Origin: Podarcis liolepis
Lineage: Eukaryota
Reading direction: 5' to 3' (one strand)
NCBI GenBank assembly: GCA_965112155.1
Contig: OZ218102.1
Length of the DNA: 64,000 nucleotides
Shown here: positions 1-64,000 of the stretch, piece after piece
How the letters are laid out: each line of letters starts with the position of its first letter
How positions within the stretch are numbered: position 1 is the stretch's first letter
The notes under the pieces: model-generated
Databases searched by the model: none
The model's input: the letters and a program-made list of their open reading frames with translations, nothing else
Told to the model about the DNA's origin: nothing
Made by a program: the position numbers and the translations under genes

Positions 1-257
1 CAAGGTATTCTGCGGAGAACGCAGCCATCCAGCAAATAGTTGCTCGTCACAACAAGGCAGCTTATCTGGGAATGAACGACTTGCAGTCAGAAGGCACGTT
101 TGCCCACCTGGACGGCAATGAAGTCAATTACACCAACTGGGCAAGCGAAGAGCCAAACAATGCTGGCGGGAAGGAGGACTGCATTGAAATATTTCAGGAT
201 GGCAAGTGGAATGACAAGTCCTGCACAGAAAGACGGTTAATAGTGTGCGAGTTTTAA
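1..257 (+). CDS. Collectin gene 1, terminal CRD exon (5' part lies outside the window); SP-D/MBL-like
   Basis: Open frame from base 3: RYSAENAAIQQIVARHNKAAYLGMNDLQSEGTF...EPNNAGGKEDC...WNDKSC...IVCEF*. It has the EPN and WND motifs and the collectin C-terminal CEF. Confidence 0.92.
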   Translation, partial: RYSAENAAIQQIVARHNKAAYLGMNDLQSEGTFAHLDGNEVNYTNWASEEPNNAGGKEDCIEIFQDGKWNDKSCTERRLIVCEF

Positions 258-3200
258 TCTTGGCTGCCAACTTCTGCCCTGTTGGAAGATATGCAAGATC
301 TCTGATCGTATTTGGGAATATCCAGTGTGAAACCTGTTAGGGAATGGGGACTATCCACTGGTCCCCGGTTCCTGTACAAAGCAAGAAACCATCTCCTCCA
401 CTCTGTCTGTATTTTGAAATAGTCCTCTTTTTACGCAACTCAGGCATCCATTTCAAGAGACACAACCCACACTAGCCTGTTTGCTCATTACGGTACCATC
501 TTGCTCACTCTGAAGCCACACAACACAATAGCAAACCCGTGCATTTCCACTTGCTCATTCCATCTGCGATTTCCACTTGTTTATTCCAGCATTGTTTTTC
601 CCTAACCTGATTTATGACATCTGAACACTGGGAGTGACTTAACCTGCAGAATCAGTTGGGAAATCTTTCTGTCCCTCCTCCATTTTTGGCATTGATTTCC
701 ACCATTTCCTGGCCTTTCACTTTCTGAAATCTCAGGTACTTCACCAACTTCCCCTCATTATTGTTCCAGTTGTTATGGAACAACATTTTTCTTTTGCATT
801 TCCCCCAGGGATATTTCAAATGTGTACTTATGCACGTGTGTACAATACAGTGTCCTACACGCGCAGAGCCGCGCACCTCTGCTTCTTCTCATTTAATTTT
901 TGTTACTTTAAATATGTGACACAAATAGCCACACAGGCAGTAGCAGAAAACCTGGCACTGGGAGAGCTGGTGTCACTGTGTTCACTGTTACAGAAATCCT
1001 TCCCCAACACCATCAAAGACTACATACCTTTCAACATTACTCCAATGAAAATAGGGAACTCCTAAAGAGAAGCAGGATATTCTGGGATCAAATCAGAAAC
1101 CAGGACAGCTTCTGTAATCTGGGACTGTCCCTGGAAAATAGGGGCACTTGAGACTACCAGTTGGCAAAAATGTATCTATACATTTGCACCAATGCGACTC
1201 ACAATATTGCAAAAAGTGTGCTAAGCAGGTACCACCTGCTTTGCCTTCTCCCTAATGTTCTCGTTTCCTACTTGTATGGATTTTTAAAAAGAAAGGATAT
1301 AGGATTTTTTTTTAAATGACCCCATGAAGTGGTAACTATTTTACTACTTCAGATGCAGGGAAAGTTGACTTTTGCCAACTTCGTGCTCAAATTCTACCAA
1401 AATTGAAGTAGTGGGTGCAGAATAAAACTTGCAAACTAAGGACTCAGCTAGATTGGTAAAAAAGTGTTTTATATGTGTTGTATATGCGATATAACACTAT
1501 GGCACCAGATGGCGCTGTCGAGTCCCATCCTTTCCAACCGGGTTTCCCTGTATAAGTTAACAAAAGAGTGTGCAAGATTAAAATAAAAGATATACAGAAA
1601 TACCTTTGGTTTGTTTGATTTAGTTCTGAATCCAACGTTCCCTCAAGTGAAATTTGTCTTTTTAGTAGCAGCCAAAGCCATATTATGTTGCAACATTGTT
1701 GTGTAATGCTGTGCTTTAAAAACGAGGGGGGGGGGAATATTTGCTTTGACAAATAGCAACTTCAATGATATATTGGCAGTTTCCCGAGATAGTTCTTGCT
1801 TCATCTGGACGTTTCTTCACCTGAGAGCCATTGCTACATATTTTGTACATGGGGGTAGGGTCAGGAGATGCAATTCCCACAAGAAGGTAGAGAGTGGGTG
1901 GGTCCAACAGGCCGTAAACCACTTTTAAGTGATATGGGGCTGGGAGGTAATCAGATTTTGCTAGGTTGTACTCGGAGAGGATCTGCAGAAGGTAAGCTAG
2001 TAATTTTTCCTTCACTGTTGTATAAATCATGACTTTTCACAAACTAACCTGCAATGTTAATACCCTGTTAATCTGCTGTGTTGCTGCTGTGCCAAAATCT
2101 TAATCACTTTTGGCAGAGTTAAAAGAGGGATCGCAGGGAAAGTAGAGGTTCGTATTTCAAGGTTGGCCGTATTCCCTGGTGAAAGAACAGTGGGGCCTTG
2201 AGCCATGCCATAGACTTTGAGCCCAGGGCATGGCCTGGGGGAACATGATGCAGCTAAGCAGGTCTGAGTTTGATCAACACCAGGTTGGGAGACTACCTAG
2301 GAACCCCATGTATTACAACAGTTTACCTACCCTGGTGCAGAACAATCCAATCTTTAAGATCTTCCAAAGAGACCATAGTGGTCATTTCATGGCCAGCAGA
2401 CAGTTATCGCATGGTGACAAAAGAGTCTTCTCAGTGGTAGTACCCACCACTGGGATGTCCTCCCTCAAGTCATTTGTGATTGCATGTCCAACTACACTCA
2501 ACCTTCCCTTGTCTCTCTATTCTAAAACCCAAGAGGACATTATAAACTTCCTCCCATGGCTCCCAGTACTTCCACTTTGTCAATCAGTTGGTGAGGACCA
2601 GGTCCAAGATAGATTGTAATATGGGGGGGGGGGGAGTATTTGCCAACTATTGGCTAATAGTTATTTATTTTGCTATCTGGTGATGTGAGTGGTCACTTAC
2701 TAATTTTCTTAAACAGTTAAATACATACGGGACACTTCTTTTCATATAGATACACTCCTATTTATACAGACTGATATATCATGTATCTAAGTTTGAACTT
2801 GCCAAAACTACCAGTACCCCCAAGGATTAAATCTGACATGTTTTCATTTTATTTCTCTCCTACAAAATCCAGCTTGACCAAGCTTATTACCCCTACTCCT
2901 GAGTTATGCACCCAAACAGGCAACAAAATAAGCTACAGCAGGATTTTGAAACCTGACACTGGAAGTCTGCATCAATACCTGGCATGGGTATAAAGGAATA
3001 ACAAGGAACAAAGCAATCATGTTTCAAAAAATAAATAACTCTGCTGGATGGATGAGAGTGAGGGTGGGAAAATGAAGTTGAGCATCTTGGCTTCAGCTCT
3101 GCAAATGCATTATACATATAGAGAGCAAACAAGTCAGGATTAACACTGACTGATTGGGGTCAATTGGCAATCGGTTCTTAGAAAAGCCGCTTCCTTACAA

Positions 3201-3447
3201 CCCAGAACGACCAAGCAGCCAAAATCAGTGTCAGGAGTGGCATTCAGCAGGGTGAAGGAAGCAGCCTTAATTTGGGGTGGGTCGGTGAGGGTGGGGGGAG
3301 AGCAGTGGAAAAATGGGACTGGTGTCTGAATGGTGCAACAAGATCTGTAAACGTGCTGGCCCTTGGGATGGGCTCCACTTTAGGCAATGGTATGACTTGG
3401 GCCAGTGATCAGCATGAAGCCATTCATATGAAAGGGTGTCACTACAC

Positions 3448-3582
3448 CAGGCATAGGCAAACTCGGCCATCCAGATGTTTTGGGACTACAATTCCCATCA
3501 TCCCTGACCACTGGTCTGTTACCTAGGGATTATGGGAGTTGTAGTCCCAAAACAGCTGGATGGCTGAGTTTGCCTATGCCTG
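3448..3582. mobile_element. Palindromic hAT-type MITE (related copies near 3690, 4396, 6422, 7900, 32947, 33225, 34380, 43022)
   Basis: Long inverted arms around ggactacaattcccatcatccc; TSD cactacac/cactatac. Confidence 0.75.
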
Positions 3583-4552
3583 CACTATACTATGTAGATA
3601 GGAACAAACCTGGCACTGAACATCTGGGGTCAACAAGGACAGTGAGCATCTTTAACCCCAACCCCAATGAAGTCTATGGATGCATTTGATGGGGAACCGG
3701 TTGCCATCCAAATGTTGTTGAACTCCCAACTCTCATCATCCCTGAGTACTGGCCATGCTGGCTGGGAGTTGAAGTCCAACAACATCTGGATGGCCTCAGG
3801 TCTCCCATCCCTGCCATAGCGAAGAAGAAATTGTCGCATGGGGGGACACGGCTGTTATGAGAATAAGTCCTGAAGAGACCAACTGGGTTGTGAGTCCTGG
3901 AAGATCTGTTCCCTGCCTTGTAGGCCTTTTCCACCTGGCCTGGGAAGGTGGAGTTCGGACTGACTCCAGCTGCAGAAGCTGAGGCTGCTGAACCGATTCT
4001 TGGGCTGGGTACTATTTTTGTTGGGGTGTGGGTTGTTGCTGCTAATTTGTTGGTATTTTTCTTTTAGATCTTGTGATTTATGTGGAAATGGTTTAGTTTG
4101 GCTGTGTGCTTTTTAACTTTATTTATTGTCTAGGACTACTGTTGTTATGTTGCAGATTTATGATTTTTTTATGTTGTAAGCCACCTTGAGCATGGTTTGA
4201 ACTGTGGAAATGTGGCATACAATATGGAAAGTAGATGCGTGACACACCTGAGTCTGAATGGACCCCACAGCAGGGTGCATTGTGACTTTGTACAGGGACA
4301 GGCAAGGTCCCTGGGGATGCCACAGTGTGTGAACCCCTCCCTTCGCCCCCTCAACTAGCATGATGGGAGCCATTTTGCTACTAATAGTATAAACCAGTGT
4401 TTCCCAAACTTGGGTCTCCAGCTGTTTTTTAGACTACAACTCCCATCATCCCTAGCTAGCAAGACTAGTGGTCAGGGATGATGGGAATTGTAGCCCAAAA
4501 ACAGCTGGAGATCCAAATTTCAGGGGGGAATGCTGATATAAACTGGGATGTA

Positions 4553-6335
4553 CAGCGGCGTAGCGTGGGTTGTCAGCACCCGGGGCAAGGCAAGTAATTT
4601 GCGCCCCCTAACCCGGGGCAAGGCAAGTAATTTGCACCCCCTAACCCGGGGCAAGGCAAGTAATTTGCACCCCTTAACCCCTAACCTGCCGCCGCTGCCA
4701 GCTTCTTCTTGCTGCTGCCTGGTCTGGTCTGGTGTGGTTCTCTCCTGCGCTCAGCGCTGCGCTGGGTGGCTGCTGCACTGTCCCTCCCCCAGATAGTCCC
4801 TCGCTCTCTCTCCGCACTGCACGCCTGGCACCCACCCCCTCCACAGTGGGCAGCGACCTGGCGGCTCGGATCGGATTCGCACAGCCAGCACTGCAGTTAG
4901 AGAGAGTGAGCCAGGTAGGGGCAGAGAGCTGAGAGTGCGAGCGCCCCCCCCAAATGTTGTGCCCGGTGTGGCCGGCCCCCCCTGCACCCCCCACGCTACG
5001 CCACTGCCTATTACGCTGTCAGTGAGCCTGCAAGTAGAGCTTATCGCTAAATCTCTAATTCTAGGAAGGCTCCTCTACCCTATGGGGGAAGACCTGAAAA
5101 GGCAGCTAGGCGGGAGGGAGCCACACATCCCCCCACACCTCCCCAGAGCCACTTGCCCCCCTTTCTGCTGTGGGCAAAACCAGTCTGGAAATCACTCACT
5201 AAGTGACTTTGGATCCCTGGGAAATCACATACGAGTCACACTCATCTTTGATCTGCACCTCAGCATTGGTTTTTCCAGGTGCAAAGGAAGAATCCTGCAA
5301 TGCACACACCACCCCCACCTCCTGGCATCTCCGGAGCAGGGTGTGGGGTATGGGATGGAGAGAGAGGAGAGCCTGTCTGGACAAGGTGCCACCAGGGTGG
5401 GGGCAGGTGCCAGTCCAGATGTCTCCCTACCTTCCCCTGGTCCTCAGGGGGGAAGTCTCTAGGGCTGAAGGTGAAGGAGTCCGGGCTGGTGTTGGACTCG
5501 TGGCTTTTGGTACCCCCCCGAGGTGGTTTTGCTGGTGGGCAGCGGCTGAGTGCTGGGCTCTGGGGCTGAGGTTCGAGAGTTGGGGTGAGTCTGGCTGCTG
5601 TTGCTGGCTGGCCAGGTGCTGGATGCCGACTTGGGGCTGCTCGGCGGATGGCGGGGAGTGCCGAGTTCTGGCCTGGTCCCAAGGAATGACTGGATGTCAG
5701 CGGTGGTCGGCTGGCGAACTGTGCTGCTTCCTGGAGGAGCACTGGGCGGCGGAGGAGTCGCGGCGGAGGGCTGGGCGCTCAGAGGAGCAGTCGCCGTCGG
5801 CTCTTCGGTGAGAATGGGCGTCGCCTCCGTCGGGCCGCACGTCAAATGCTGGCAGGTCGTTCTCTGGGAGACAGGGAGAGAGAGTCACCAGGGCCGGCTG
5901 CTCGGTGGTGCGCTGCAGTCAGCCCAGGGGGCGCTGCGCAGCGACGGCGGCCTAGAGAGCCTTCGCCCGTTCCTGTTCGACGGCTGTGCAGGCACCTGCT
6001 TTGGCGGGAACTTACCACCCAGGGCGTGGAAGTCTTTGGGGAGTGCAGGGCGCGGCGAGGCCCGGCGGCGCGTCGGGGTGCGGAGGCTGCCCGTGCCGGC
6101 CAGGCGTCGGTGGCGGCGTCAGCGCTGCTGCAGCGGCTGCTCCTCCTGCGAGCAGTGAGTGGAGCGCAGCCGCAGCGGCGGCGGGGAGCGCGCGCGCGCT
6201 AGGGCGCAAGGCTGGCGGTGGCTGTGGGGAGCCCGGCGGAGGAAGGAACTTGTCCCTTCCCTCTGGACTCGCGCCCCCCCAGATGTTGCGCCCGGTGCGG
6301 CCGGCACCCTTGGCACCCCCCACGCTACGCCACTG
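4553..6335. mobile_element. Composite non-autonomous hAT-type DNA transposon with GC-rich captured cargo
   Basis: TIRs cagcggcgtagcgtggg / cccacgctacgccactg; exact 8-bp TSD gggatgta at 4545-4552 and 6336-6343; an extra internal right end at about 4940-5006. Confidence 0.85.
4578..4676 (+). repeat. 3 x 33-bp subterminal tandem repeat
   Basis: Unit acccggggcaaggcaagtaatttgc(g/a)ccccc/tta. Confidence 0.9.
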
Positions 6336-6421
6336 GGGATGTAGCAGGGAGGGGCTGTGTGCCTGTTCTCCCCTATGCAGTTTGAAACTTCACCTGTTCA
6401 AATGAAAGCCTGGAGATAGCT

Positions 6422-6557
6422 CAGGCTTCCTCAAACTCAGTCCTACAGATGTTTTGAGACTACAATTCCCATCATCCCTTCCCCCTGGTCCTGCTAGTTA
6501 GGGATCATGGGAGTTGTAGGCCAAAAACATCTGAAGGGCTGAGTTTGAGGAAGCCTG
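6422..6557. mobile_element. Palindromic hAT-type MITE
   Basis: caggcttcctcaaactc...gagtttgaggaagcctg; TSD agatagct/aggtagct. Confidence 0.75.
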
Positions 6558-7902: not shown

Positions 7903-9087
7903 TCTGTCCACAGGTAGTTGGACTCCAGCTCTCATCATCCCCAAACAGCATAGCCAATGATCAGGGAGCATGGGAACTGAAGTCCAGCAACTCCTGGAGG
8001 GTCACAGGTCAATTGCCCTCGTCTATGGTGAACATATAGCAAACTTTCGATTTTGTGGGGGAAACCACTCCAAACCATTTCCAGGAATCAAACTGATGAT
8101 TAACTGGTTTTGCAACTGCTGACCTAGTTTGTTATACACATACATCTCCACCTCTGTAATGAAGCTGTTGCAATGGAAAGAGCAAGCAGGTTTTTACTTC
8201 TTGCTAAAGTCCACACAGTGGACTTTTCAAGCACATGATTTCACCCAAAGAATCCTGGAAACTTTAGTTCACCTTCAAAGAGCTACAGTTCCCAGCACCC
8301 CTTAATAAACTACAGTTCCCATGAGTCTTTGGGGCAAGTTATGTGCTTTATATACATGGTGTGTACCCGGCCACTGAATGGCTTGCTAGTATGTCAATAC
8401 TGTGTGAGAGCAGGCTCGACCACTGCAGTCTTCCAGTAATGGAGGGCAATGGAGAAAGACCAGTGGCTCACTTTCTCCTGCACACATTTGACACTAATTG
8501 CCTGAAGAGGACTAATGTCCCCTGAGCATTGTAGGTCATGCTAGGACCTGCTGCCACATTTCTGCTACTTTCCCCCCCCCCACAAAAAAACCCTCATGTT
8601 CACTCTGATTTGAGGTGGGGCAGTGCGAGTAAATAGCAATGTGTTCTTTGCATGAATTGAAACCTATGCCACAGGTGAAGTCAGGTTTACCCTTCTCTTG
8701 CTATTTATTATTTTAAAAAACCATTCATACAGGCAATAAAGCACTGGATAACATGCCATCTAGTTTGACCCTAACTGTGGCAAATAAGCCTGAGAAATCT
8801 GAAGATCCTAATCTATGTTTTAAGTATTTGCCTTGCAGAACTTGAAACCTGTGACCCCCGCTGTAAGATCTTGTTTCCACTTTAGCTTAGGATAACAATG
8901 GCCCAGTTATGAGGTGGCAAAACCTGAGTCAGACCAAACCAAACTAGACTGCAAGTGTGTGATAGAATTTGCCCCTGAGGAAAAAAGATTCCTATACACA
9001 AATTCCTGGTGTGTGAGAGAAAACTACTGAGGACCTTTTTTGGCTGTGTGTGTGGAACTCTCTGTAGTGAAGAGGATTCAGTCATGT

Positions 9088-9160
9088 AAAGGTAAAGGGA
9101 CCCCTGACCATTAGGTCCAGTCGTGAACGACTCTGGGGTTGCTGTGCTCATCTCGCTTTA
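9088..9160. mobile_element. Sauria SINE fragment
   Basis: aaaggtaaagggacccctgaccattaggtccagtcg matches the end of the copy at 19912. Confidence 0.75.
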
Positions 9161-9260
9161 TGTAAGCTCAGATGTACTATCTGGCATGGCCCCAGGCAGA
9201 GATGTCGCCCTCAACTGTACAAATACTGTTGTGCTTTGCCTTAGATCTCATCATTGAGAA

Positions 9261-9462
9261 ATGCAACGCCATGTCCTCTGCATTCTTGTGCTGGGAGCGT
9301 CATCGGTGAGAATGTCAGATCCGGAGCAATGCAACTGTGAAGAGAAAGTGCCAGCCTGCATGGTTATTCCTGGAAGCAATGGAGTGCCAGGCATCCCTGG
9401 GAGCAATGGACTGCCAGGAAGAGATGGGAAGGAAGGTCCTCAAGGTGAAAAGGGAGAGCAAG
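9261..9462 (+). CDS. Collectin gene 2 (MBL-like), coding exon 1: signal peptide, Cys-containing N-terminus, 10 Gly-X-Y triplets
   Basis: Acceptor ttag at 9244, ATG at 9261, MQRHVLCILVLGASS...GLPGRDGKEGPQGEKGEQ, phase-1 donor g|gtatgg. Confidence 0.9.
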
Positions 9463-9789
9463 GTATGGCATAAGGAATTTCCAAGAGTTATCCAATGGTA
9501 GTCATAAAATCATAGAACTGTAAAGTTGGAAAGGACCTTGAGGGCTATATATTCAACTCCCTGCAATGCAAAGATCTCAACAAAAGCCATTTCCGACCCT
9601 AGGGAGGAGGTGGGGCTGTGGGCTTCCAGCCCCCAACTCCCGCACTGAGGCTGGCTCTCAGCCTCACGCATACAGGGGGAATCCTCTGCCGCGTCATACC
9701 CTGGCCAGCCTATCGGCTGGCTCAGGGGGTGTGGCTTGCCGCTCTTAAGGCGGTAATCTTAATGACAGATTACCATCCAATGAAGGAGA

Positions 9790-10080
9790 GACCACATCCT
9801 CCCTCGGGATTCCATTCTACTGTTGAACAACTCTTACTGTCAGAAAGTTCTTCCTGATGTTTAGCCGGAATCTCCTTTCTTGTAACTTGAAGCCATTGGT
9901 TTGAGTCCTACCCTCCAGAGCAGGAGAAAACAAGCTTGCTCCATCTTCCATGTGACCTCCCTTTAGATATTTGAAGATGGCTACCAGATCTCCCCTGGCT
10001 CCTCTTTCCCTGGCTAACAGACCCAATCCCCTCAATTGTTCCTTATAAGGCTTGGTTTCCAGACCCTTGGTCCTCTTGGT
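9790..10080 (-). mobile_element. CR1 LINE 3' fragment in gene 2 intron
   Basis: Peptide ...GFKLQERRFRLNIRKNFLTVR is the CR1 ORF2 C-terminus. Confidence 0.8.
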
Positions 10081-10387
10081 TGCTCTCTCAGTATTAGGAG
10101 GAAATCAAAGCACATGCCTGGCATGGAGGAGGCCCCATGTTCCATCTGTGGCTTCTCCACGCAAAAGGGATCTCAAATAACACGACTAGAAAAGACTGCT
10201 GGTCACTCTCCTCCAAAGAGGAGAGCACACTTGGGCAACAATGAAGACCCCCAGTTTCCCGCAGAATGTCCTTTCAAATAACTATTTGTTGGTGTAGTCA
10301 TATGTTTAACTATAACCCAAGAACGCCCATGCATTATGTTGCTCATTTGTTCATCTTTTTCTGTTTATCCATTGGATTAAATGGCAG

Positions 10388-10477
10388 GTTTACGAGGAAT
10401 GCAGGGACCCCCAGGAAAAGCTGGGCCTCCTGGCCTTAAAGGGGAAAGTGGTCAGAAAGGTGACTGTGGAGGAAAAG
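10388..10477 (+). CDS. Collectin gene 2, collagen exon (90 nt)
   Basis: gcag| GLRGMQGPPGKAGPPGLKGESGQKGDCGGK |gtaagg; phase 1-1. Confidence 0.9.
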
Positions 10478-10877
10478 GTAAGGGATGTGGACAACTGCAG
10501 ACACACACAAGCCAAGAGATTTTACTGAAATTTGTCTGGGTTTTATACACAAAGCTAATAAGAATCTAAACTTTGTGGTTCCATATGAAAAGTAAAACAT
10601 TCCAAACGATGGGATAGGATATGTCTTTATTGAAATATAAGTGTATTAAAGTCTAGAGTTGCTTTAGATATCTGTCTTAATTAAAATGGCAAATTGATTA
10701 CAGCTGCAAAATCAGTCTGGTTAAACTGAGGCTTTGTACTCCCATGATTCTTTAGAACTGCTACTTCAATCAACAACAGAAATGTTTCATTTATTGATTC
10801 AAGCAGATTCTAGTTGATGGAAGCAAACAGTCTCATATAAAGTCCCATGTGACACTACCAATTCATACACATACACA

Positions 10878-11027
10878 TGAGCTGGGATAGCTCAGCCTGT
10901 AGAACATGAGACTCTTAAATCTGAGGGTTGTGGGGCTGAGTCCCACCTTGGACAAAAGATTCCTGCATTGCAGGGGGTTGGACTAGATGACTCTTGTGGT
11001 CTCTTCAACTTTACGGTTCTATGATTC
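10878..11027 (+). mobile_element. tRNA-derived SINE with CR1-type tail (other copies about 13080-13212, 20570-20710, 27626-27760)
   Basis: gatagctcag A-box head, then ...cattgcagggggttggactagatga...ttctatgattc tail. Confidence 0.7.
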
Positions 11028-11457
11028 GATGAGCAAGGAAGTATGGTGCCATTTTTTTCAGCCTGCTATGATTCTGGCCTCAACATCACTATGGCTAGGT
11101 AAGGGAGGTGATTTGTTATAGTTTGAAAATAGTTTCCTTGTTCCTTGATGGATGGTTCATTGTGTACACTATCAACTTTATGCACCTGATGAGGTGAGCT
11201 CTTCTGAACCACAAAAATGCATGCGACATTATATTTGGTAGTCTTTGAGTTCTGCCAAGACACTGCTGATTTTGCTGCAAAGACTTAACACTCTTCAGGA
11301 ATTAAGACAATGAGAAACTGAATGGGGCAGGGAGACGGTCAATGGTGGATTTGAGATTTGTCACTTCTGAAGCAGATTCTTCCTTTGTTCTTCTTTTGTA
11401 ATCTTTTATACTTTAACACAAGCAGAACAAGAATGATACTGTCCTTTTGCCTTTTAG

Positions 11458-11541
11458 AACTTGAGCTGCTCAAAACTCAAATCAGTGATTTACAAGGAGA
11501 GCTGAAGGCTTTGCAGCTGACTGCAAGCAAAACCCAGAAAG
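11458..11541 (+). CDS. Collectin gene 2, neck (coiled-coil) exon (84 nt)
   Basis: cttttag| ELELLKTQISDLQGELKALQLTASKTQK |gtaagc; heptad leucine pattern. Confidence 0.88.
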
Positions 11542-11764
11542 GTAAGCTAGTTGTTTGTGTACCTTGATGAAAGATGTACGGGTTGCCATTAATATCATCC
11601 TCTGACATTACACAGTCCTTAATGCAACCAAACCACTCATTTGAGCAACTAAATATACAGCAATTGCTGTATGGATCAGGCCCAGGTCCTAAATTTGGGC
11701 TATTAATGACGAAAGCACATTTGAAATAATTAATTTTGATTGTATTGTCTGTTAGCCATTCTAG

Positions 11765-12135
11765 GTTACATTTTCTCAAACAGCACAAGAGTAGGAGGGA
11801 AACTATTTGTGACTAATGGAGATGACGGTGATTATGAGACTTCAAAAGCGACGTGTAACCATTTTGGTGGCCAGGTTGCTTCTCCAAGGAATGAAAATGA
11901 AAACAACGCTGCACTGAAACTCTCTGCAAAAATGGGAAGAAAAGTATTTTTTGGAATGAATGACCAGGAGACAGAAGGCATCTTCAAGCATCTTAATGGT
12001 GAAACAATGGAATATTCAAACTGGGCACCAAAAGAACCCAATGGGGTGGAAGAGGACTGCATAGAATTGTATCCAGATGGCAAATGGAATGACATCTCAT
12101 GCAATGTGGCTCGGTTAATAATGTGCGAATTTTGA
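11765..12135 (+). CDS. Collectin gene 2, CRD exon
   Basis: ctag| GYIFSNSTRVGGKLFVTNG...EPNGVEEDC...WNDISC...MCEF*. Spliced CDS is 747 nt in frame. An alternative in-frame acceptor 9 nt upstream is possible. Confidence 0.88.
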
Positions 12136-12600
12136 TCTGACTGTCTTTATGGGTGTTTATAGATATATTAAAGCAAAATTCAAAAATCTGTTAATTTTAT
12201 TATTATTATTATTGCTTTTAATTTTTATTGAATTTACTTGATAACATAACATTATTATAAATGGTCTTTTGAAGAAGAAAAAAGATTACAAAACAATGTC
12301 AGTTCAAAATACAATACAATTCACCATATACTCCTACATATATACACCTAAGACTTCCCACCCCACCCCCAATGCCTTTACCTTTTCTATTTTCCTGTTG
12401 TACAAAACTTGACATTAAACTAAGTATACTATCTTATAATTTCTTACTAATTTTTAGAACCTTTTCATTCATATATATAGAAATCATTCAAAAATCTGTT
12501 TAGCTGACCGAATCACCTAGAGAATGTCAGGCACATTGTGTACCAAATTCCAAAGAGTAATAGGATTGCTGATAGTATAGAGGCCAAGAAGCTAATAATA

Positions 12601-12815
12601 CAGTCGTACCTTGGATCCCGAACACCTTGGGACTCAAACGTTTTGGCTCCCGAACGCTGCAAACCCAGAAGTGAGTGTTTCGGTTTGCAAACGTTCTTTG
12701 GAACCCAAACGTCCAACACAGCTTCCACTTGGCTGCAGGAGCTTGGTTGTCAAACATTTTCGGAAGTCGAACGGACTTCCGGAATGGATTCCGTTTGACA
12801 ACCAAGGTACGACCA
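12601..12815. mobile_element. Tc1/mariner-type MITE
   Basis: ta|cagtcgtaccttgg...ccaaggtacgacca|ta. Confidence 0.65.
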
Positions 12816-13537
12816 TATATTGGACTGTTCCATTGAATTTGTAGGTTCGCTACATTTGGAATAATACGCTGTTCCATCACTGTTTCTATACTTTCCTTAC
12901 TATATTGTTATCTTGAAGTTACTGCTTTAGAGTGATAATGATACAGCATTTACCTATGTGATTAGCTAATGACATCCGGGCATATTTGACCATTATTGAA
13001 ACAGTTTTTACTGCCCCAGTTCATTATCATTTCATGCCTCTCCACCACCTGACACACATCTTGCTCCTTATCTGTTCGTAGAATTGCAGAATGGAAGGGG
13101 CCACAAAGGTCATCCAGCCCAGCCCCTTGCAATGCAGCCCCCAAAGGGGGGCTCAAGCTCAAGACCCTGAGAATAAGAGTCTTGTGTCCTACTGACTGAG
13201 CTATCCCAGCTCCATTGCTTTTAAAACAATCTTGAGCAGCCACTCTCTTGACATGATTTGGGGACCATCCTTTTTCACTCAAAAGAAGCAAACTCTTCCG
13301 TTTTGAGCAATTTCGTTGTGTGGTTCTTGCTACAGGTAGGGGTCTAGGTTTTGGCAAACAGAGCAAGACTTGGGGAGCTGGGGCAAGGTCTAGGCTGAGG
13401 TAAGGCAACAGTTGCAAGATTATATGGCACTGCTTCACCCAGGGATCCGGTTGAAGGGTGCACAAAGACAGAGTTTCAAATGTTTCAGCAGCAATAATCC
13501 TCTAACTGAGGTTTAAGCAGGACCTACCTTCTGTGAG

Positions 13538-13890
13538 AGACGCGAGTGGCACTGTGGGTTAAACCACAGAGCCTAGGACTTGCCGATCAGAAGGTCGGCG
13601 GTTCAAATCCCCGCGACGGAGTGAGCTCCCGTTGCTCGGTCCCTGCTCCTGCCAACTTAACAGTTCCAAAGTGTGTCAAAGTGCAAGTAGATAAATAGGA
13701 ACCACTCCGGCGGGAAGGTAAACAGTGTTTCCGTGCGCTGCTCTGGTTCACCAGAAGTGGCTTAGTCATGCTGGCCACATGACCCGGAAGTTGTACGCCG
13801 GCTCCCTCGGCCAATAAAGCAAGATGAGCGTCGCAACCCCAGAGTCGTCTACGACTGGACCTAATGATCAGGGGTCCCTTTACCTTTACC
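13538..13890 (+). mobile_element. Sauria SINE, near full length
   Basis: Typical body ending in (accttt)n; ttctgtgaga appears on both flanks. Confidence 0.8.
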
Positions 13891-15254: not shown

Positions 15255-15488
15255 CAGTGGTACCTTGGGTTACAGACCCTTCAGGTTACAGACGCTTCAG
15301 GTTACAGACTCCACTAACTCAGAAATAGCACCTCGGGTTAAGAACTTTGCTTCAGGATGAGAACAGAAATCATGCAGCAGCAACAGCAGGAGGCCCCATT
15401 AGCTAAAATAGTACCTCAGGTTAAGAACAGTTTCAGGTTGAGAACAGACCTCCAGAACGAATTAAGTTCTTAACCCAAGGTACCACTG
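15255..15488. mobile_element. Tc1/mariner-type MITE
   Basis: TA-flanked, TIRs cagtggtacct...aggtaccactg. Confidence 0.85.
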
Positions 15489-17627
15489 TACAGCAAACAA
15501 TGGTTACAGCAGGGAAACCTCCCAACACAGACACGAAGAGAACAGCATTTCTTATTGATCGCAAAATAATAATAATATTCTGGGCGCTCAACCCTCTTTC
15601 TGCTCTTTCAACTTTTCAGCTTAACAGCTTATAAATGATTTTTAAGAGAACATATATGCCCTTGGCCAGCATTGGGAAAAGAGGTTTTCCAGCTTTTATC
15701 GGATCACAATGAATTTAAACCTTTTGTAAATTTTCAGAATTGATACATGCAGAATACTTTCCCATGAATTTTTGGAATTTTGACTCTCAGAAGGCATTTT
15801 TGTGGTATTTTCAGAATTCCAACCCTCAGATCATTTTTATTTTATTTTTTTACAAGAGAATAGATTAACAGTGTACATATTGTGCATATTCACATATTTT
15901 AGATGATATTAGAAAGGGGAGGGGGTACAATTGTTCACTTTATACAGTAAAGCTCTTAGAGATCTTGAATTTTTTGTTTCAAAAAGTGCAAAATGTTAGG
16001 AAACAGTAAGCATGGCATAAAATAATCAAAACATTCCAAAGATCACATTGGGATAGAGGAAATACATGTGAACTGTGCATCCTCATTACAAACTTTTGAA
16101 AGAATGTTATCTACAAAAGCCAAGCATATAGTATGTATGACAACATACTTATAAAATTAGCACAACCTTTAAACTTTAGAAAGAGTCAGTCTAAACAAAG
16201 AAAATCTGGAATATCAAGATGTTTGGTCTAACATACCTGTCCAAAACGTACAGCAAACAGAAGGTAGTCTAGGTTCTTTGGACGAGGAATTAATGAAAGA
16301 AATGGAGACCAGTTATCATAAAAACCATATTTGGTAATGTCACCTCTGACTACTATAGCACTGTTGTGTTAGTTTGCCTACAAGTGCAAATGCTATCCAA
16401 ATGCTATCATACCAGTTTTACACAGTTAAAAATCTCTTCTCCATAAGAATGTGATCAGTATCTGGGCCGCTCCCAGGAAATGGATTTTAATTAATCACTT
16501 AAATAAAATACATTTATTTGCTCCTCAAAATAATGATAACAAGGTCAAGCCTGGGTCTTTAACCACTGTAAAATTCAGAATTTTAGAAATCACACAGAAT
16601 ACATCATCTCAATACTTGCTTACTGCCTGACACTCCCACTATAAGTGACTATAAGTCCCATTAGTGGAGCACCCCCAAGACAGAAAACCAAGCCACAAAT
16701 ATTATGTGCTTGCTACCACCAGTGGATTGATTTAAGTAATTGCTCCTTAACAAGTACTGTAAATTGTTCAGTAATGAGTTAACAATTTGTTTTGAATTGT
16801 TTACTTTGAGGTGGCAAGCTCCATTGTTCTCTGCATGTATTTTACCACCACTGGACAATACTTCCTTTGTGTTTCGCTTTCTTGGATTAACAGCGTCTAT
16901 AGCAGGAACCCGGAAACCATGCTCTTGAGAAGTCCCACTTGAAAGCAACAGACCTGCTTTGATAGTTTGACGATCGTGAAGCAAAATATTTATGGTTAAA
17001 ATGCTTTGCATAAGAAACATGAGCTCTTGTTACATAACCCTTGGTCTATAAATGGAATCCTGAATGCCTCCTAAATTAGTCTTGCTAAGACTTTTGTGGA
17101 ACAAAACGGAAATTACAAAGGGACTGGACTTTTGATATGAACTCCAAACATGGACCAAACAAAGAATCCTAACAGGTATAAATGATTGTATATTATTCTT
17201 TCAGTGTGCTAAAATCAACAGGGACTTATTGGACCGAAATAGTCTAAATGCATTTGATTACTGTATAGATTAGCAAAATGCTTGTGATTATAACGGGAGT
17301 GAAGGGAAGGTGGAAACAGGTACCATATATTGCAGGGCCCCCAGGAGGCTGTGCTATATTTCTTGGTACTCTTTTTGTACAAGGAGGGTCCTACTGTGCT
17401 CAGTGGAACTTAGTCCCATGCAAGCATGCATAGGAGTTGCAGCCAGGCCCCAGATAGGGCAGCATTTCACCATCACTTCAGCAATTCCCCGAGATGCAGA
17501 AGTTAGGCTTTTTTGCATAGGAAGGAATCACACCCATTCACTTGGGATTAGAGAAAGTATACATCTGTATTCTGTAGGGTGGCCAGATGCAACAGATGAC
17601 AGGGCTTCCTCACCTTTGTGTTGCTGA

Positions 17628-26280: not shown

Positions 26281-27499
26281 TACTTTATGATGCCACCTTC
26301 AGAGTCACATTATGAGTCAGTCAGCTGTATCAGTCTTTCAGATCTTCCCTCTGACTGAACAATACTGTAAGTTAAAGCCCTAAATACTCACCCTATCTTG
26401 CTGAGGAGCATTGCACTTTCATCAGCAAACACATGTTCCCTGTAAGGCCAACTTCAGGTAAGGACAACCCTAGGTTATCTCAAGGTCATCTTTGTTATCT
26501 CTGTCATCTCATGACATCCTCAGAAAAACACTCCATTGAGAGTGCCAGTCTTTTCCTCTCTCTGAGTTGCAAGGCTTAACAAATATACAACAGAAGCAAA
26601 ACAAAACCACTCCAATGTCCAGCATCTGACAGATCAAACAAAAACACAAGAAGAGTTGCTGGATCAGGTCAACGGCCCATCTAGGATTAAATTCTACAAT
26701 TAAACAAATTAATGCCTTAGATCCACCTGAAACTTCAAATCTAAATAATACATATCTGTACATAACTTCAAATCTAAATAATGTGTATCTGAAGAAGTGT
26801 GCATGCACACGAAAGCTCATACCAAGAACTAACTTAGTTGGTCTTTAAGGTGCTACTGGAAGGATTTTTTTTATTTCAAATCTAAAGTGCATTTCAGAAC
26901 CTGATATTTTCTCGATACTACACAATGGAGTGGTAGGTCTCTGAAAGAAGGAACTTGCCCTATGTTCTTGAGCAACTAACATGTTTTGAATTAAGGAACA
27001 GTCATTAAAATAATAGATTTCTGGCAGTTGGAACCTCAAGATGAACTAGTTGGTCCATGCATGTGTAAGAATGGTTATCATGCATTTATTTTACCCCCCC
27101 CCCCACTTCTTTCCACGTGATGTGTGTCATGGCAATGACAATGGATTATATTTGTCACTAACAAACATGGGCCAAGGTCCAAAGAGCTTGAGCAGATTCT
27201 CTGCAAACATCACAAGCTACCTTAGAAAGCCTTCTTGGTTTCAAAGGTGGTTTGCTGTTTCAAAGGTGGTTTGCTATGAAGAGCTGCTGTTTGAGAAGCT
27301 CAAGGACCAAAACCCCTGTTGAGACTATGGTGGCCCATCATGTAACATGAACATTGAAATAGAAGGGAAAAAGGTTGTTGCTAAACATTCTGAGCTTTGT
27401 GCGAGAGCGTCCCAAGATGTTCTTGTCTCCATTCCAAGCCTCTGTTGCCTAATGGGCATGCGTGTGAATAATCCTTAGATCTGACTGTATAAACCATTA

Positions 27500-27840
27500 C
27501 TTTTCTTCTCTTATGCTGCCTTCGCTTTGACAGGAGTGGTAAATAAAGTTGGAGACAAAATATTTATTACCAGTGGGAAGGAAGCCTTTGTATTATTGCC
27601 GGTTAGTGCAGTTATACCTGAAAACTCTGAGTTAGCTCAGTCGGTAGAGCATGCGACCCTTAATCTCAGGGTCATGGGTCTGAGCCTCATGCTGGGCAAA
27701 AGATTCCTGCACTGCAGGAGGAGATAACCATCGTGGTCCCTTCTAACTCTGCAATTCTATTAATCTGTTACCCTGTGATGTACTTTGTGATATACTCCAC
27801 ATTCATGAAAGTCCCCCAGCTGGGGTAGCCATGTACATGT
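27500..27840 (+). pseudogene. Degenerate SP-A-like CRD exon, interrupted by a tRNA-SINE
   Basis: AFALTGVVNKVGDKIFITSGKE aligns with SFTPA VLLLKGMINKAGDKIFATNAK. The acceptor context ttttcttctcttatgctg has lost its AG relative to SFTPA tttttcttctctgttgcag. There is a remnant VIPENSE before the SINE and IHESPPAG (vs IKESPIPR) after it. Confidence 0.6.
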
Positions 27841-47597: not shown

Positions 47598-47708
47598 GTC
47601 CAATGGGCCCTCCTAATGGTCTGCCAGGTGCTACTGGAAGAGATGGACTTCCTGGTCCACCAGGGCCAAGAGGTGAACAAGGAGAAAAGGGAGAGAGAGG
47701 CCCAGAAG
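47598..47708 (+). CDS. SFTPA: SFTPA collagen exon (111 nt)
   Basis: ttctag| GPMGPPNGLPGATGRDGLPGPPGPRGEQGEKGERGPE |gtaaaa; SP-A-type GPMGPP and kink. Confidence 0.9.
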
Positions 47709-49344: not shown

Positions 49345-49422
49345 GCCGTCCTGCTTCTCTTGATCCAGAAGTACAGGAAGTCCTCAGAAGTCTGAATCAA
49401 AAAATATTGAGGCTCGAAGGAG
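49345..49422 (+). CDS. SFTPA: SFTPA neck exon (78 nt)
   Basis: gacag| GRPASLDPEVQEVLRSLNQKILRLEG |gtaatc. Confidence 0.9.
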
Positions 49423-51173: not shown

Positions 51174-51550
51174 TGCTTCTTCTCAAAGGAATGATAAACA
51201 AAGCAGGAGATAAAATATTTGCCACCAATGCAAAGGTAGTTGATTTCGAAACCATACTTCAAACATGCCAGAATTCTGGGGGTTCTGTTGCCAAACCCAT
51301 GAATGAAAAGGAGAATGATGCTATTTTGGAAATTGTGAAAGAGAAAAACCAATATGCCTACCTGGGAATTAAGGAGAGCCCTATTCCGAGAGAATTTGAA
51401 TATTTAGATGGAATGGCTGTCAATTATACAAACTGGCGTCGATATGAACCAAATGGCAAGGGAGCTGAAAACTGTGTTGAGATGCAAACGGATGGATCCT
51501 GGAATGACAAAAAATGCAACCAGTATCGTCTCACTGTCTGTGAATTCTAG
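51174..51550 (+). CDS. SFTPA: SFTPA CRD exon
   Basis: ttgcag| VLLLKGMINKAGDKIFATN...YAYLGIKES...VNYTNW...EPNGKGAENCVEMQTDGSWNDKKCNQYRLTVCEF*. Spliced CDS is 747 nt (248 aa). Confidence 0.92.
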
Positions 51551-52041: not shown

Positions 52042-52251
52042 AATTGTTAATACAAATCATCTGCCCCCAGGGCGCACAAAGATGGCTCTTGTGTTTTGAG
52101 CCACCTCATAGCAGAGTCCTGTCTTAGTCTCACAGTGGGATCCTGTCTTTGGACACAAGTGCCACTGAACTCAGTGAAACTTACCCCTGAGTAAACATGC
52201 AAAGATTGTGCTTTGACTCTTTGATCCTTTGGGGCAGTTGCTGTTTTGCTT
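52042..52251 (+). repeat. 210-bp segment duplicated at 54407-54616
   Basis: Identical by eye over the full length. Confidence 0.9.
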
Positions 52252-54870
52252 CTCAGTTAGTCAATATCCTAGTGGTGCAGGGGTAAAACTGCTATCACAT
52301 TTGCAAAGCTAAGCAGGGTCCAGTATGGTTTCAAATTGAATGGGAAACCCCTTGTTGAACTTCCTGCATTGCAGGGGGTTGGACTAGATGATGCTCAGTG
52401 TCCTTTCCAACTCTACAATTTTCTGATTCTACTATGAGAGTGATGACAGTGATTCCCAATTCCAGTCACAATAGCCCTCAATCAGGAAATAGTACCTTAC
52501 ACCATTGCGAGGAAGGACAAGGGCAGCAGTCATGTGACTCCCCACCCCCAATATTCTGAAATGGTGCAGTCCAGGAAAAGCTTGTTTTCCTGTGATTCTG
52601 CTATTTGGATTAAACCAGCCCTGAGCCTATTGGGAACAGGGGTTTAAACACACTTCTTTAGCACTTGCGCATATGAGTGTCTAGAGCAGCAGCTGATAAC
52701 AGCAGATGTGTGACCCAATATGTTATTTCATTATGTTTACAATGGCCAGTTAATGGACAGCTTAGCCTGAAGGAAGGGTGTACTTGGAGGACTTGCCTGT
52801 CAATCATTAATAAAATGTATTGAAATAGCAAGGATGAGACTACTATACTACACTGCACAACCTTTAAACAGCCTGCAAATGTTGAAGGGCTCGCTCCTTC
52901 AGAATGTTGAATGTTGCATCCTGATATATCAAATAATGCTGTGCTTTTGATGATGATTATGAGTCTCCTTTTTTCTATTTACACTATTTCAACTCAAAAT
53001 TAAAATTAAAAAAACCAGACCAAAGGAAGAACACCCCCAAGAGCTGATGTGAATTCTTGCCTGGCAAAGTCAAAGCAGCAGCTTATGCTACCAGGATATT
53101 TCTTGCATAGCCAGCAATCTGAGTTCAGTATTTCTTCAGGGACACTTGTTTTAGTATCGACCTAAAACAGCAATAGATTTTGATTTCCCGTTACCTTGGG
53201 AAGATATGCTGCTTTCTTTTTTACTTTTTTTTAAAGGAGCCTTTTACAGGCCAGAAAGTTTCCATTTCATCTTTAGGAGAAAGAGAGGAAGGACGGAAGG
53301 AAGACAGACAGACAAAAATTGACAGGAAAATTTGGATTAAAAAATGAAGTGTTCTATACATCTGTCTCAGCAATTATAAATAGTTGTGCTGAAGATATGT
53401 TATTGCTGTACCTGCAGTGCTATTTTACTAGAAGAGGAGGTGCCCAAACTCATGATGAACGCCTCCCTTGTTCTCTTAGAATGGCAATAGTGCCCACCTG
53501 AGAGATGCTGGAACGGAGTTCTGGAGTGTTCTGGAGAGTTCCAGTTGAGAAAAAGCCCTGTGCACCTACCTGGAGTTCTGTTGCAGCAGCTATGGAGATG
53601 TGTTAACCATAACCACTCTTGGTGACGTGTAAACAGGGCATTAGTGACCTTTTGGCTCTTCAGGAACAACAGAGACATAGGTGGGCAGCCAGAGGTTTTA
53701 AAGGGCATCACAATTCCTGCCTGCATGACTCCCATGACCCTACTCCGTGAACACATGAATAGTGAACATATGATGGAGGAGAGAGAGCACGCCTGCTGTT
53801 TCCACCCACAAAACTGAGCCAACCTACTGGCCCTCCTCCAAAGTCTGCGCATTAGAAAAAGCTAATTAAATATTACATGTATAATCGGTAAACAGTATTT
53901 GCCGAGAGGAATAATTTCCAGTGGAATGTTTGAGAAACAGGATGTTCGCTGCATTGAAGAGTGCTTGGGAACTTGTCCAAGTACTGTTGCTTTTAATGAG
54001 AGGAATTCTATTATGAGACATTATTTGTAAAAGGCTTAATTCCACACTGCAGAGAGAGCAGAGCTTTGTTTACAAGGTGCCTCAATACAGAGAGCTCTGT
54101 ACTTGGAGAACTTATATATGAGGGCTTTCTGCCTAGCCACATATGACTCAATTGAGTAATCTAAAATTGTTTCTGAAACCAGATCCCAACAGATACGGGC
54201 TGAGAAGTGGAGGCTGCAATCCTATATATGGTTACCTGGGAGTAGGGATGGGGTTCATTGCTTTTCTCAGTCTGCTTTTGTGGCTTTGTCATGGTTGCTT
54301 GGTCCATGACCACACTGAACTGCTCATCCAGTGCTGGCTTATTCCGCAGCCTGAATGCGGACATTGAACTTGGTTCTGATGTCGATCTTTACCATTTTGG
54401 CCGAAAAATTGTTAATACAAATCATCTGCCCCCAGGGCGCACAAAGATGGCTCTTGTGTTTTGAGCCACCTCATAGCAGAGTCCTGTCTTAGTCTCACAG
54501 TGGGATCCTGTCTTTGGACACAAGTGCCACTGAACTCAGTGAAACTTACCCCTGAGTAAACATGCAAAGATTGTGCTTTGACTCTTTGATCCTTTGGGGC
54601 AGTTGCTGTTTTGCTTTCTCTGGGGGTTCCCAGTGTTTCTTAAAGCAATAGTAAGTTCTTATAACTTGGAGTTTCTCCAAACTTCTGAATCTGCTCCCCC
54701 TTTCTAAATCTAAATGAATCTTACTGGCACTCCTCCGCTCAGTACAACTCTTCTGCAAACATGTACAAAATTAAAATGCTGGGGTCATAAAATACTATAT
54801 CAAGCAGTATTTCAGAAGAGAGGTGCAGCCCCTTCCCTCTGCCCTAAAATAACAAATATTTTTGCTTGTG

Positions 54871-57571: not shown

Positions 57572-58459
57572 CTTTTTTGGGCAAAGGCACACTTGTTTGA
57601 TGAAAAAAATCTCGCGGCACACCACCATTACAGCCCCATGACGTCAGCGCGCAGCGTCACGCCGGGAGGGACGCACGAAAGTTAAAGTTTTCAATTTTTT
57701 TCCCTCCCCCTTGCCGGGGAACCTCCAAGCTTTGGGGGTGGGGGGGGAGGAGGCAGCAAAGCGAGGGACTGAGGGACCCTAACCCTAACCCTCACCGATC
57801 ACCCGGGAAAGCATGCGAACGAGGAGCCCCCGTGTCCTGCTCCCGGCAGCGGACGGCACAAAGCGAGGAGGCCTGGACAAGGCAGCACGCTCCCCGCTCT
57901 CGCTGCATCGGGGCTTTTCTCCTCCAGGCCGCTTTCGAAGTCCCCTTCTCCGCTCCCAAGAGCCGGAGCCGCTGCTTCCAGGCCCTGTCCGAGCCCCGAC
58001 TTGTGGCCTCACTTTGAGGAGCGCCTGTTGCTGGGGACGGGGCTGCATCCCCCTCAGCCGCCGCCTCGCTTCCTTCCAGGAGACCCGACGGCTCCCCCTC
58101 TCCCGCTCGCCCTCCTGCGCCCGCAGCAGACCGAGACCTCCCCGCCCCCGCCCGGCTCGGCCCTACCTGGGCGCCTCCAAGCCCGGCCGGCTCCGCGTCG
58201 CGCTCCACGCCGGGCAGCTGCAGCGGGGGCGCGCGGCGGCCCGGCTGAGCGCGCCCCGGAGCCGCCGCGCCGTCGCTCGCGAGTCCCTCCGAGAGCCCTC
58301 GGGACTGACTCCGGAGTCGCGAGGCGGCGCGTCGCCCAGGGAAGGGGCGGCTTCCCACAAGTCCTCCGGGAAGCAAACGCCCTCGCCCGCCTCCCTCCAG
58401 GCAACATCTCGCGGCACACCAGGCAACATCTCACGGCACACTAGTGTGCCGCAGAACAC
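57572..58459. mobile_element. GC/CpG-rich island between two gaps, with hAT-like subterminal motifs
   Basis: Repeated (g/a)cggcacac motifs at both ends and a cggcacactagtgtgccg palindrome; the TIRs and TSD would fall inside the gaps. Confidence 0.55.
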
Positions 58460-58911: not shown

Positions 58912-59002
58912 ATGCCTTCATCCCAGTTGGTTCATATCCTCGTGGCAGTGGCTGCTCTGCTTGTAACCAGTGATGCTCAGGAAACATGTCCACAACTTAT
59001 AG
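58912..59002 (+). CDS. Collectin gene 6 (SP-A/lung-lectin-like), coding exon 1: signal peptide plus one Cys
   Basis: Acceptor tttag at 58898. MPSSQLVHILVAVAALLVTSDAQETCPQLI; phase-1 donor g|gtaagc. Confidence 0.72.
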
Positions 59003-59694: not shown

Positions 59695-59775
59695 GTCCTC
59701 CAGGTCCTCCTGGACACCCTGGACCACAAGGGTTAAAGGGCAGACAAGGCGAGAAGGGAGATCATGGGATACCAG
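59695..59775 (+). CDS. Collectin gene 6, collagen exon (81 nt, 9 triplets)
   Basis: ttcagcag| GPPGPPGHPGPQGLKGRQGEKGDHGIP |gtgact. No neck or CRD exon was found before the window end. Confidence 0.8.
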
Positions 59776-62192: not shown

Positions 62193-63117
62193 GCTTAAAG
62201 TAAAACTACATAGACAGGGCACAACAACACAATGGAAGACTGAGCAAACTTTAAAACTGGCAAATAGTAAAACAAAGTGTTTTGTTCAGTTGCAAACACA
62301 AACCCCATTAGATTCCAAAAATATAGAAAGAGGTATGTCAGAATCAATGGGACACTGCAAGACAAACAAATCACAATACTCCTGGGGCATCCACCTGGTG
62401 ACTTGTTGATGGGCAATGAATAACAGAAGCAGTACAGTAAATAGTGATACCCATTACATAAGCAACGCCCACAACACTGTCAGGAGAGCTGGAAACAATA
62501 ATGTTATTTTCGCAAAACACCAGGTCAGGCCAAGATCGTACAAATTTAACAAAATGCAAACCACAGCCGACTGAGTCTGAGCTAGAATAAAATGATGAAA
62601 TGACAGAACATCAAACCCCATGCCTAGTGGGGATGGTCACCTTCTCTGGTTTTCACTAAGCACTTTGCCCCTTAACTAAATCCAGTGATAGGTGATCAGT
62701 CTCAATAATAAGGTGGGCACAGACCAGCAGCACATTATTATGAGATCATCAATTTCAAGGGGGAGACATCACGTGCTTTACTTTACAAATCGCTGAGGCA
62801 GCTGCTGGACATTCAAAGCACATCTCCCCTCCCTAAAGGACCCTGGGAAATGTTGTTTGGCCCTCACAGAGCTACAACTCAAAGCACTCTTAACAAACTA
62901 CCATTCCCAGTATACCTGGGCAGTGCATTTTTCTGGGGGGATGCAGGTGTACGAACACCCCAAAACATTTCGTGAATCTAAGTTTGGCCTCATTGAGGGG
63001 CAGTATTTCAATATAGGTAGGAAAATGAGAGTACCCCTAAACATTTTTTTAGAAAAAAAAGCACTGTACCTGGGTGGGTGGGTGCTTTAAATATGTGGCT
63101 TTGTATACAGCCTAAGT

Positions 63118-63373
63118 CAGGGGTCAGCAACCTAAGGCCCGTGGGCCAAAAGCGGCCTGCGGAGGTTGTTTGACCAGCCCACAAGCTGCCCCCAAACTGA
63201 GCCTCCTGCTCTCATGCTACGCTAAACGACGCAGTGCGGCACAGGGACTCGCTTCTGTGGGGGTCAAAAATTGGGTGTACGCAGACGCCGGAAATCCCGT
63301 GTGCGATCCAGCCCATGGAGGGATCTCTGCGGGACCGATCTGGCCCAGGCAAGATAAACCTTGCTGACCCCTG
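63118..63373. mobile_element. Non-autonomous hAT element
   Basis: TIRs caggggtcagcaa / ttgctgacccctg; TSD gcctaagt/ccctaagt. Confidence 0.8.
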
Positions 63374-64000
63374 CCCTAAGTGCTGCAGAAGTCTTTCTCC
63401 CAGCCACATGGAAAGATAAAAGAGCAAGGAACATGAGACCCGTGAGTGTAGGGTGGCATATAAATTTGATAAAAATAAAATAAAATAAATACTTGTGCTT
63501 CTTCTAGCTTGCAAACATAGCACTAAACTGTGGCCTACTGTGAACTGACATGTGGGTCCCCCCCTCTTCACTTTTATTCATTTGCTATTTTATGCACTCA
63601 CAAAACCCGCTCCCCATTTTCTCACCTTCTGGTGGATGCACTCCTTAATCTTTCAACTTCTTTCAGTACTGTTGATGTTTATAAAATTATAAATTTTTTA
63701 ATTGCCCTTGGCTTCAGCGCACTTAAGCTACACAATGTTCCTTAGGCTGTGGTCCAAACCCCTGGCTGGAAGTGGCAGGGCTTAAGGGAGTGGCATAGGC
63801 ACCGCCACATCCACAGCCATCAACCAGGGCGGAAGGAGCAGGGAAGATGCCCAGATTGGGTCTGTTGCTACATTCCCTGCCCCAAAATGCTTGTTTCAGG
63901 GCTGACCTGGGGTGTTCCTCACTAGCAGGGAGCGGGCAGGGCTGACGGGCACTGTCACCTCCTCCAGCTCAGCTGTTTAGTGCTCTGAAAATGTAACGAA

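Follow-up and report, generated by a model that had tools for sequence, protein, structure and literature searches.

The 64,000 nucleotides analysed here (the window), from contig OZ218102.1 of the lizard Podarcis liolepis (GCA_965112155.1), contain six collectin genes, G1–G6, and one relic. The array to which they belong is an old reptile repertoire that has stayed largely stable, apart from some turnover at the edges; it is not a recent lizard burst. This follows from the presence of known MBL and SP-A genes among its members, from the squamate-wide clades formed by each of the extra collectins G1–G3, and from the rejection of a clade restricted to the three extra genes of this genome. We are reasonably confident that the reptile SP-D/MBL/SP-A locus comprises eight tandem lectin genes, that G1–G3 are old, and that these genes likely divide the recognition of microbes by secreted lectins among them.

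Collagen and lectin exons were located by six-frame scans and neck exons by a splice-site scan and homology, the models being completed with neighbouring genome stretches (Table 1). Each of G1–G6 has four coding exons with open frames, all on the plus strand, which together with the matches of the relic bears out an earlier note on this DNA that had described six same-strand collectin genes plus a relic. Across the locus the order is Gx, SP-D (G0), G1, G2, G3, relic, MBL (G4), SP-A1 (G5) and SP-A2 (G6). When 444 kb were scanned with a lectin profile eight lectin domains were found and none beyond these. The cluster, also said to run past both window ends, does so on the left (G1, SP-D and Gx); on the right what remains of G6 is all that extends beyond. 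The other exons of G1, an extra collectin with a MASP-type motif, reach as far as 4.85 kb past the left end of the window, while the neck and lectin exons of G6 lie 2–3 kb past its end, the gene ending 3 kb beyond. A genome search with G5 gave at least seven matches on this contig and at least one weak match (33%) on another, both counts being lower bounds. A gene for S-adenosylmethionine (SAM) synthetase is located some 25 kb downstream on the opposite strand; MAT1A presumably adjoins the mammalian collectin locus.

Relatives were gathered by three protein searches, restricted to proteins longer than Gx, and by a profile search followed by look-ups of names. Multi-domain lectins crowded the results among 50% representatives, and 27 of the 150 rows were chosen as collectin-like. 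Trees were built with IQ-TREE (LG+G4, without a mixture model) from 167 proteins and then from 85, 51, 50 and 47 rows, leaving aside isoforms, near-duplicates and most mammalian SP-D rows; the 51-row test set was without Gx, the SP-A rows, most amphibian rows and a small number of those from birds, mammals and crocodilians. G4 clusters with the MBL of turtles and birds (99/99 in the 85-row tree, 83/89 in the 51-row tree), and G5 and G6 fall in a clade with tetrapod SP-A (100/98 in the 85-row tree, 100/100 in a 47-row SP-A tree). G1, G2 and G3 each form a separate squamate clade (100/100, 100/99 and 98/98 in the 51-row tree) with no non-squamate row inside. Among the sampled rows none is a one-to-one mammal or bird orthologue of G1–G3; G4–G6 group with described amniote collectins. 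The orthologue rows number 9 for G1 (seven named genera), 19 for G2 and 18 for G3; they span geckos to iguanians, with three gecko genera in each set and snakes within the G2 and G3 clades. Fused public models from other species repeat the neighbour orders SP-D–G1, G1–G2–G3, G2–MBL, MBL–SP-A1 and SP-A1–SP-A2. Since the three clades all include geckos and the fused models repeat the order of neighbours, the duplications that gave rise to G1–G3 must, to judge from these sequences, predate the divergence between geckos and the remaining lizards, which dates to about 200 million years ago.

The earlier note had proposed a lizard-lineage birth-and-death expansion. A burst of this kind is not supported: G4–G6 are the known MBL, SP-A1 and SP-A2, the paralogues in the window are only 30–51% identical to each other, and G1–G3 have orthologues from geckos to iguanians. 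Some traits of birth and death are indeed seen, namely the relic and single-gene gains and losses in other squamates, but not young, lineage-specific paralogues. A recent lacertid or species-level expansion under pathogen pressure might appeal to the relic and to the loss, in the G1 of this genome, of the Cys-x-Cys head of its orthologues. Against it a 110-kb self-comparison revealed no gene-sized duplicated block, only distant exon matches, one exact duplicate of 210 nt and matches of introns and flanks which recur widely in the manner of interspersed repeats, and an approximately unbiased (AU) test rejected G1, G2 and G3 of this genome as a single clade (p-AU 2e-42). We regard such an expansion as highly improbable, and as the origin of G1–G6 it is refuted by that test.

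Some of the duplications are probably as old as the reptile ancestor. Short extra collectins fall into two classes in turtles, and a single class is present in crocodilians. In a tree of the heads (44 columns) that of G3 groups with SP-D, one turtle class and the crocodilian short collectin (100/99), and the Cys-x-Cys head of G1 and G2 resembles that of the second turtle class and of a wombat MBL-like protein; for G1 the grouping with the second turtle gene and the wombat gene is weak (84/85). Several observations weigh against so old and stable a repertoire. The group which unites the turtle and crocodilian short collectins with G1–G3 has a support of only 84/93 in the 85-row tree, and the reptile extra clade of the 51-row tree (87/76) also takes in an axolotl row. 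Neither G3 with turtle and crocodilian genes (p 0.144) nor G2 with turtle genes (p 0.376) was rejected, nor was a squamate-only clade of G1, G2, G3 and Gy (p-AU 0.166), Gy being a further gene found in a monitor, an agamid and a tegu. No tuatara rows were retrieved for G1–G3, none of the nine G1 rows (0/9) is from a snake, and the orthologue sets came from word-limited searches and include partly faulty fused models. There is also turnover: G2 is duplicated in one gecko and MBL in another, SP-D and G3-like duplicates occur in cobra, and tandem units in turtle, although the fused models behind such duplicate calls can be annotation errors. Gy itself was not found at the locus of this genome, a tblastn search for relics in five intergenic intervals giving no matches.

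Two other histories have to be weighed. In one of them G1–G3 were all duplicated from one gene on the squamate stem, turtles and crocodilians having expanded separately; this amounts to the proposal of the earlier note set at an earlier date. The squamate-only clade just mentioned and the absence of non-squamate rows from the three clades agree with this, and we hold it to be a possibility of the lesser sort, since the SP-D-type head and short collagen of G3 are common to turtle and crocodilian genes, the head of G1 points, if weakly, to the second turtle gene and the wombat gene, and the squamate extras are not united in the free tree. In the other, all extras are old reptile or amniote genes with one-to-one counterparts in turtles and crocodilians, and the short clusters of mammals and birds represent a reduced state. 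Turtles do display SP-D, the two short extra classes, MBL and SP-A in our trees, loss of SP-D is reported in birds in the accessible part of PMC12077231, and G1 stands with turtle class 2 in the best tree, at 38/37 only. We think this history unlikely: turtles yielded two classes and crocodilians one, versus four in squamates (G1, G2, G3 and Gy), and a clade uniting every gene that bears the Cys-x-Cys head was rejected on neck and lectin columns (p 0.025). Our preferred reading remains the old reptile repertoire described above.

Turning to the genes themselves, a hydrophobic N-terminal stretch is present in 7/7 models, with one to four Cys ahead of the collagen, and a head profile matched all first exons. 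Collagen regions of 9–22 Gly-X-Y triplets occur in G1–G6. The neck exons measure 78–84 nt (E 1.5e-9 to 0.098 against a neck profile, with the weakest scores in G1 and G6). Pfam Lectin_C was above cut-off in 4/4 exons checked (G2–G5), the lectin domains of G1 and G6 being recognised by profile, and the best single-domain matches among solved structures were SP-A, SP-D, conglutinin and MBL. Each gene, as had been claimed, has its own combination of collagen length, kink, MASP motif and lectin-site motif. G1 has 18 triplets without a kink, a MASP-type motif and EPN/WND; G2 has 20 unbroken triplets, also without a kink, a MASP-type motif and EPN-G/WND; G3 has 3+10 triplets of interrupted and decayed collagen, no MASP motif, and EPN/WHD. 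The collagen of G4 is kinked (9+10 triplets) and the gene carries a MASP motif and EPN/WND, which with its place beside bird and turtle MBL identifies it as the MBL orthologue. G5 (12+10 or 12+11 triplets, kinked, EPN-G/WND) and G6 (9–10 triplets, EPT/WND) are both without a MASP motif.

Other assignments were considered. G2 is not the MBL orthologue, as a G2+MBL clade was rejected (p-AU 0.025) and its collagen has no kink; because of its MASP motif it may nevertheless work like MBL. Nor do G1–G3, labelled SP-D in databases, have the collagen of SP-D: they have 18, 20 and 13 triplets versus 58 in G0, where about 58–59 unbroken triplets are expected of SP-D. A placement of the G3 neck and lectin domain inside the SP-D clade is absent from the best tree but was not rejected (p-AU 0.083), and the head of G3 is of SP-D type. 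Only one N-terminal Cys is found in the G1 of this genome, whereas 5/5 of the orthologue rows shown have the Cys-x-Cys head; on sequence grounds this could change its higher-order assembly. We also noted that mammalian SP-A goes with the lineage of G6 and SP-A2 (96/94) and not with G5, unlike a published neighbour-joining tree; the alternative was not rejected (p 0.147).

G3 is the oddity of the array. His replaces the calcium-site Asn of WND in 18/18 orthologue rows, and the collagen is shorter still in agamids, geckos and snakes. Its neck and lectin domain are sister to those of Gy (96/94 in the 51-row tree), yet the heads of the two cannot be united (p 0.012), and on this account one of them is likely a mosaic formed by exon exchange between neighbours. 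A tegu model (P0021) combines a Gy-type head with a WHD lectin domain of the G3 clade, possibly through gene conversion between neighbours or as a faulty model. In three gecko orthologues of G3 (P0153, P0154 and P0020) a basic stretch largely takes the place of the collagen and terminates in an R-x-R-R-type motif before the neck, which we take to resemble a furin site; cleavage there would presumably free a bare neck–lectin trimer. What the altered site does cannot be read from its motif, because in the available part of PMC12842671 a bivalve EPN/WHD lectin is listed as calcium-dependent and another WHD lectin as independent, so that WHD alone need not mean a loss of calcium dependence.

At least part of the array is expressed, as G2 and G3 were found spliced in RNA-like contigs. 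Four runs were compared with positions 8800–24700: three contig sets presumed to be RNA and one recorded RNA run (12% read), possibly from relatives. The joints between exons 2 and 3 and exons 3 and 4 of G2 lie at the modelled GT..AG sites in 2/3 contig sets, and one read of the recorded RNA run crosses the exon 2–3 joint. For G3 a single contig of 1620 nt (run X2 record 11) joins the upstream, signal and lectin exons; the 201 nt between the latter two match exactly the combined length of exons 2 and 3. The last acceptor of G2, at 11756 in RNA-like contigs, agrees with the public orthologue. All 18 introns modelled in G1–G6 (24/24 when the upstream SP-D gene G0 is included) are GT..AG and of phase 1, so that the claim of phase-1 introns throughout is correct from the signal-peptide exon on; the upstream exon of G3 departs from it, for it would join via a phase-2 intron if the ATG at 17150 is used, like the public orthologue model.

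How might these products work? Each would be a secreted, neck-driven trimer. G1, G2 and G4 carry the collagen motif GKAGP, and all five calcium-site residues, the names of which we take to follow rat MBP-A numbering, are kept in 9/9, 19/19 and 6/6 of their respective orthologue rows; EPN-N/WND is constant in G1 (9/9) and EPN-G in G2 (19/19). The accessible part of PMC12077231 gives “VGKAGP” or “HGKIGP” as the MASP motif and EPN/WND as a mannose-type site. On the strength of these motifs G1, G2 and G4 are predicted to bind mannose-type glycans and to recruit MASPs, leading into the lectin pathway of complement. In G2 the loop is shorter (EPN-G) and the residues following WND vary, which would tune its specificity. 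G3 may act as an agglutinin or opsonin without complement, its ligand preference being shifted. G5 and G6 would be lung surfactant lectins, the latter with a relaxed sugar site; the third EPx residue of G6 shows six states in 14 rows, comparable to the EPA of mammalian SP-A rows. Duplicates would have been retained with conserved, gene-specific sites, while single-gene gains, losses and exon exchange occurred at the margins. We put forward more tentatively that non-avian reptiles retain a larger ancestral collectin system which was trimmed in birds and mammals, with up to three MASP-recruiting lectins plus a mosaic, non-complement G3, set apart by its SP-D head, decaying collagen and fixed calcium-site His, with its own ligand class and perhaps a guarding role in skin glands or mucosa.

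The array is no new kind of system, since cattle already provide an example of collectin expansion at this locus. The bovine locus, in the portion of PMC6061482 at hand, consists of conglutinin, CL-46, CL-43, SFTPD, MBL1 and SFTPA1 within 260 kb of chromosome 28; it too has six tandem collectin genes at the SP-D/MBL/SP-A position, the extras being related to SP-D. The bovine extras, however, nest in the mammalian SP-D clade of our tree and are, according to the same portion, limited to cattle and a few herbivores, whereas the reptile extras are short (13–20 triplets versus 58 in SP-D), form separate clades, include two with a MASP-type motif, and extend from geckos to iguanians. Avian MBL, SP-A1 and SP-A2 are treated in the available parts of PMC12077231 and PMC11815655, which use the names A1 and A2 differently; we follow the former, whose published trees also include reptilian SP-A1, SP-A2, MBL and SP-D. 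In the trees G4 stands with the MBL of birds and turtles and G6 with the bird EPS/EPT gene, while G5 corresponds to the bird EPN gene, although their group is not resolved as a clade; the order MBL, SP-A1, SP-A2 recurs in fused bird models. Birds differ in being without SP-D and in having SP-A collagen shortened or lost, as far as these parts report, and no bird row falls with G1–G3. The array is, as had been supposed, larger than the mammal or chicken set, and the “few members” of those animals may be a reduced state.

The genes are already annotated publicly, as G2–G6 match public lacertid (Podarcis) models at 96–99% identity, yet the subfamilies G1–G3 are apparently uncharacterised; G3 stands out most among them. 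G4 shares 99% identity with a protein named mannose-binding protein-like and G6 98% with public model P0163. The public label “SP-D-like” lumps under one name true SP-D (G0) and the separate clades G1, G2 and G3. No published work resolving G1–G3 was found in the literature searched, a search outside which most subscription papers fall; Kunchala et al. 2023, reportedly on SP-A2 evolution, may cover part of the topic. Three SFTPD orthologues were detected in the femoral glands of the marine iguana (PMC8143647), an earlier sign at the protein level of several SP-D-like lectins in lizards, outside the lung. The available part of that paper presents no gene locus, tree or motif analysis. From pit viper plasma a calcium-dependent, mannan-binding protein of 36 kDa is described in the part of PMC12608831 at hand. 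Reptile innate immunity is thinly mapped and the conserved subfamilies provide named targets: the gene behind the snake plasma protein, the identity of the three iguana lectins, and whether the lectin pathway of reptiles is fed by more than one lectin all become testable.

Beyond the left end of the window, G0 groups with squamate and turtle SP-D. Gx is predicted to have a signal peptide, a neck and a lectin domain with a 13-residue deletion and EPS/WHS motifs, and sits on a long branch close to the extra collectins. Owing to the deletion and these motifs it is probably not a calcium-dependent sugar binder. An Atlas search with Gx returned generic lectin clusters only.

Table 1. Coordinates of the features in the window and of the two neighbouring members to its left
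Feature	Position	Strand	Exons and remarks
G1, lectin-domain exon, 3' part (EPN/WND)	1..257	+	squamate clade 100/100
G2, extra collectin, 251 aa	9261..12135	+	9261-9462, 10388-10477, 11458-11541, 11756-12135
G3 upstream exon	17042..17175	+	in-frame ATG at 17150; one spliced contig; matches start of public model P0003
Reverse-transcriptase fragment, non-LTR retroelement type	17637-18626	-	inside first intron of G3
G3, extra collectin, 246 aa	19406..24258	+	19406-19571, 21074-21190, 23265-23348, 23885-24258
Relic, SP-A1-like lectin exon	27493..27584	+	acceptor region and first ~22 codons
G4, mannose-binding lectin orthologue, 243 aa	30415..35090	+	30415-30580, 31921-32028, 33755-33838, 34717-35090
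G5, SP-A1 type, 248 aa	45056..51550	+	45056-45236, 47598-47708, 49345-49422, 51174-51550
Reverse-transcriptase fragment, non-LTR retroelement type	45354-46508	+	inside intron 1 of G5
G6, SP-A2 type, short collagen, 208 aa	58912..64000	+	in-window exons 58912-59002, 59695-59775
G0, true SP-D orthologue, 371 aa	G000:C5:23664913-23673714		7 coding exons; 58 unbroken triplets
Gx, predicted collagen-less member, 170 aa	G000:C5:23650337-23652746		three exons; 31-34 kb left of window

The relic has 73% DNA identity to the start of the last exon of G5 (E 8e-7; nhmmer E 9e-8), the top ten scores of its peptide are all SP-A rows, and a dispersed short repeat follows it. At 14029 a weak match of protein sequence to the first exon of MBL (E 0.022) was without DNA support and was dropped. 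Rfam gave no matches. Just upstream of G6 about 0.9 kb (57572-58459) is very GC-rich and CpG-rich, unlike its surroundings, and a second GC-rich stretch lies at about 4500-6500. Between G5 and G6 an exact direct duplicate of 210 nt (52042-52251 and 54407-54616) is found with its copies 2365 nt apart. Some 176 kb left of the window there is a copia-type retrotransposon with an open frame of 1413 aa on the minus strand (L025:97-4335).

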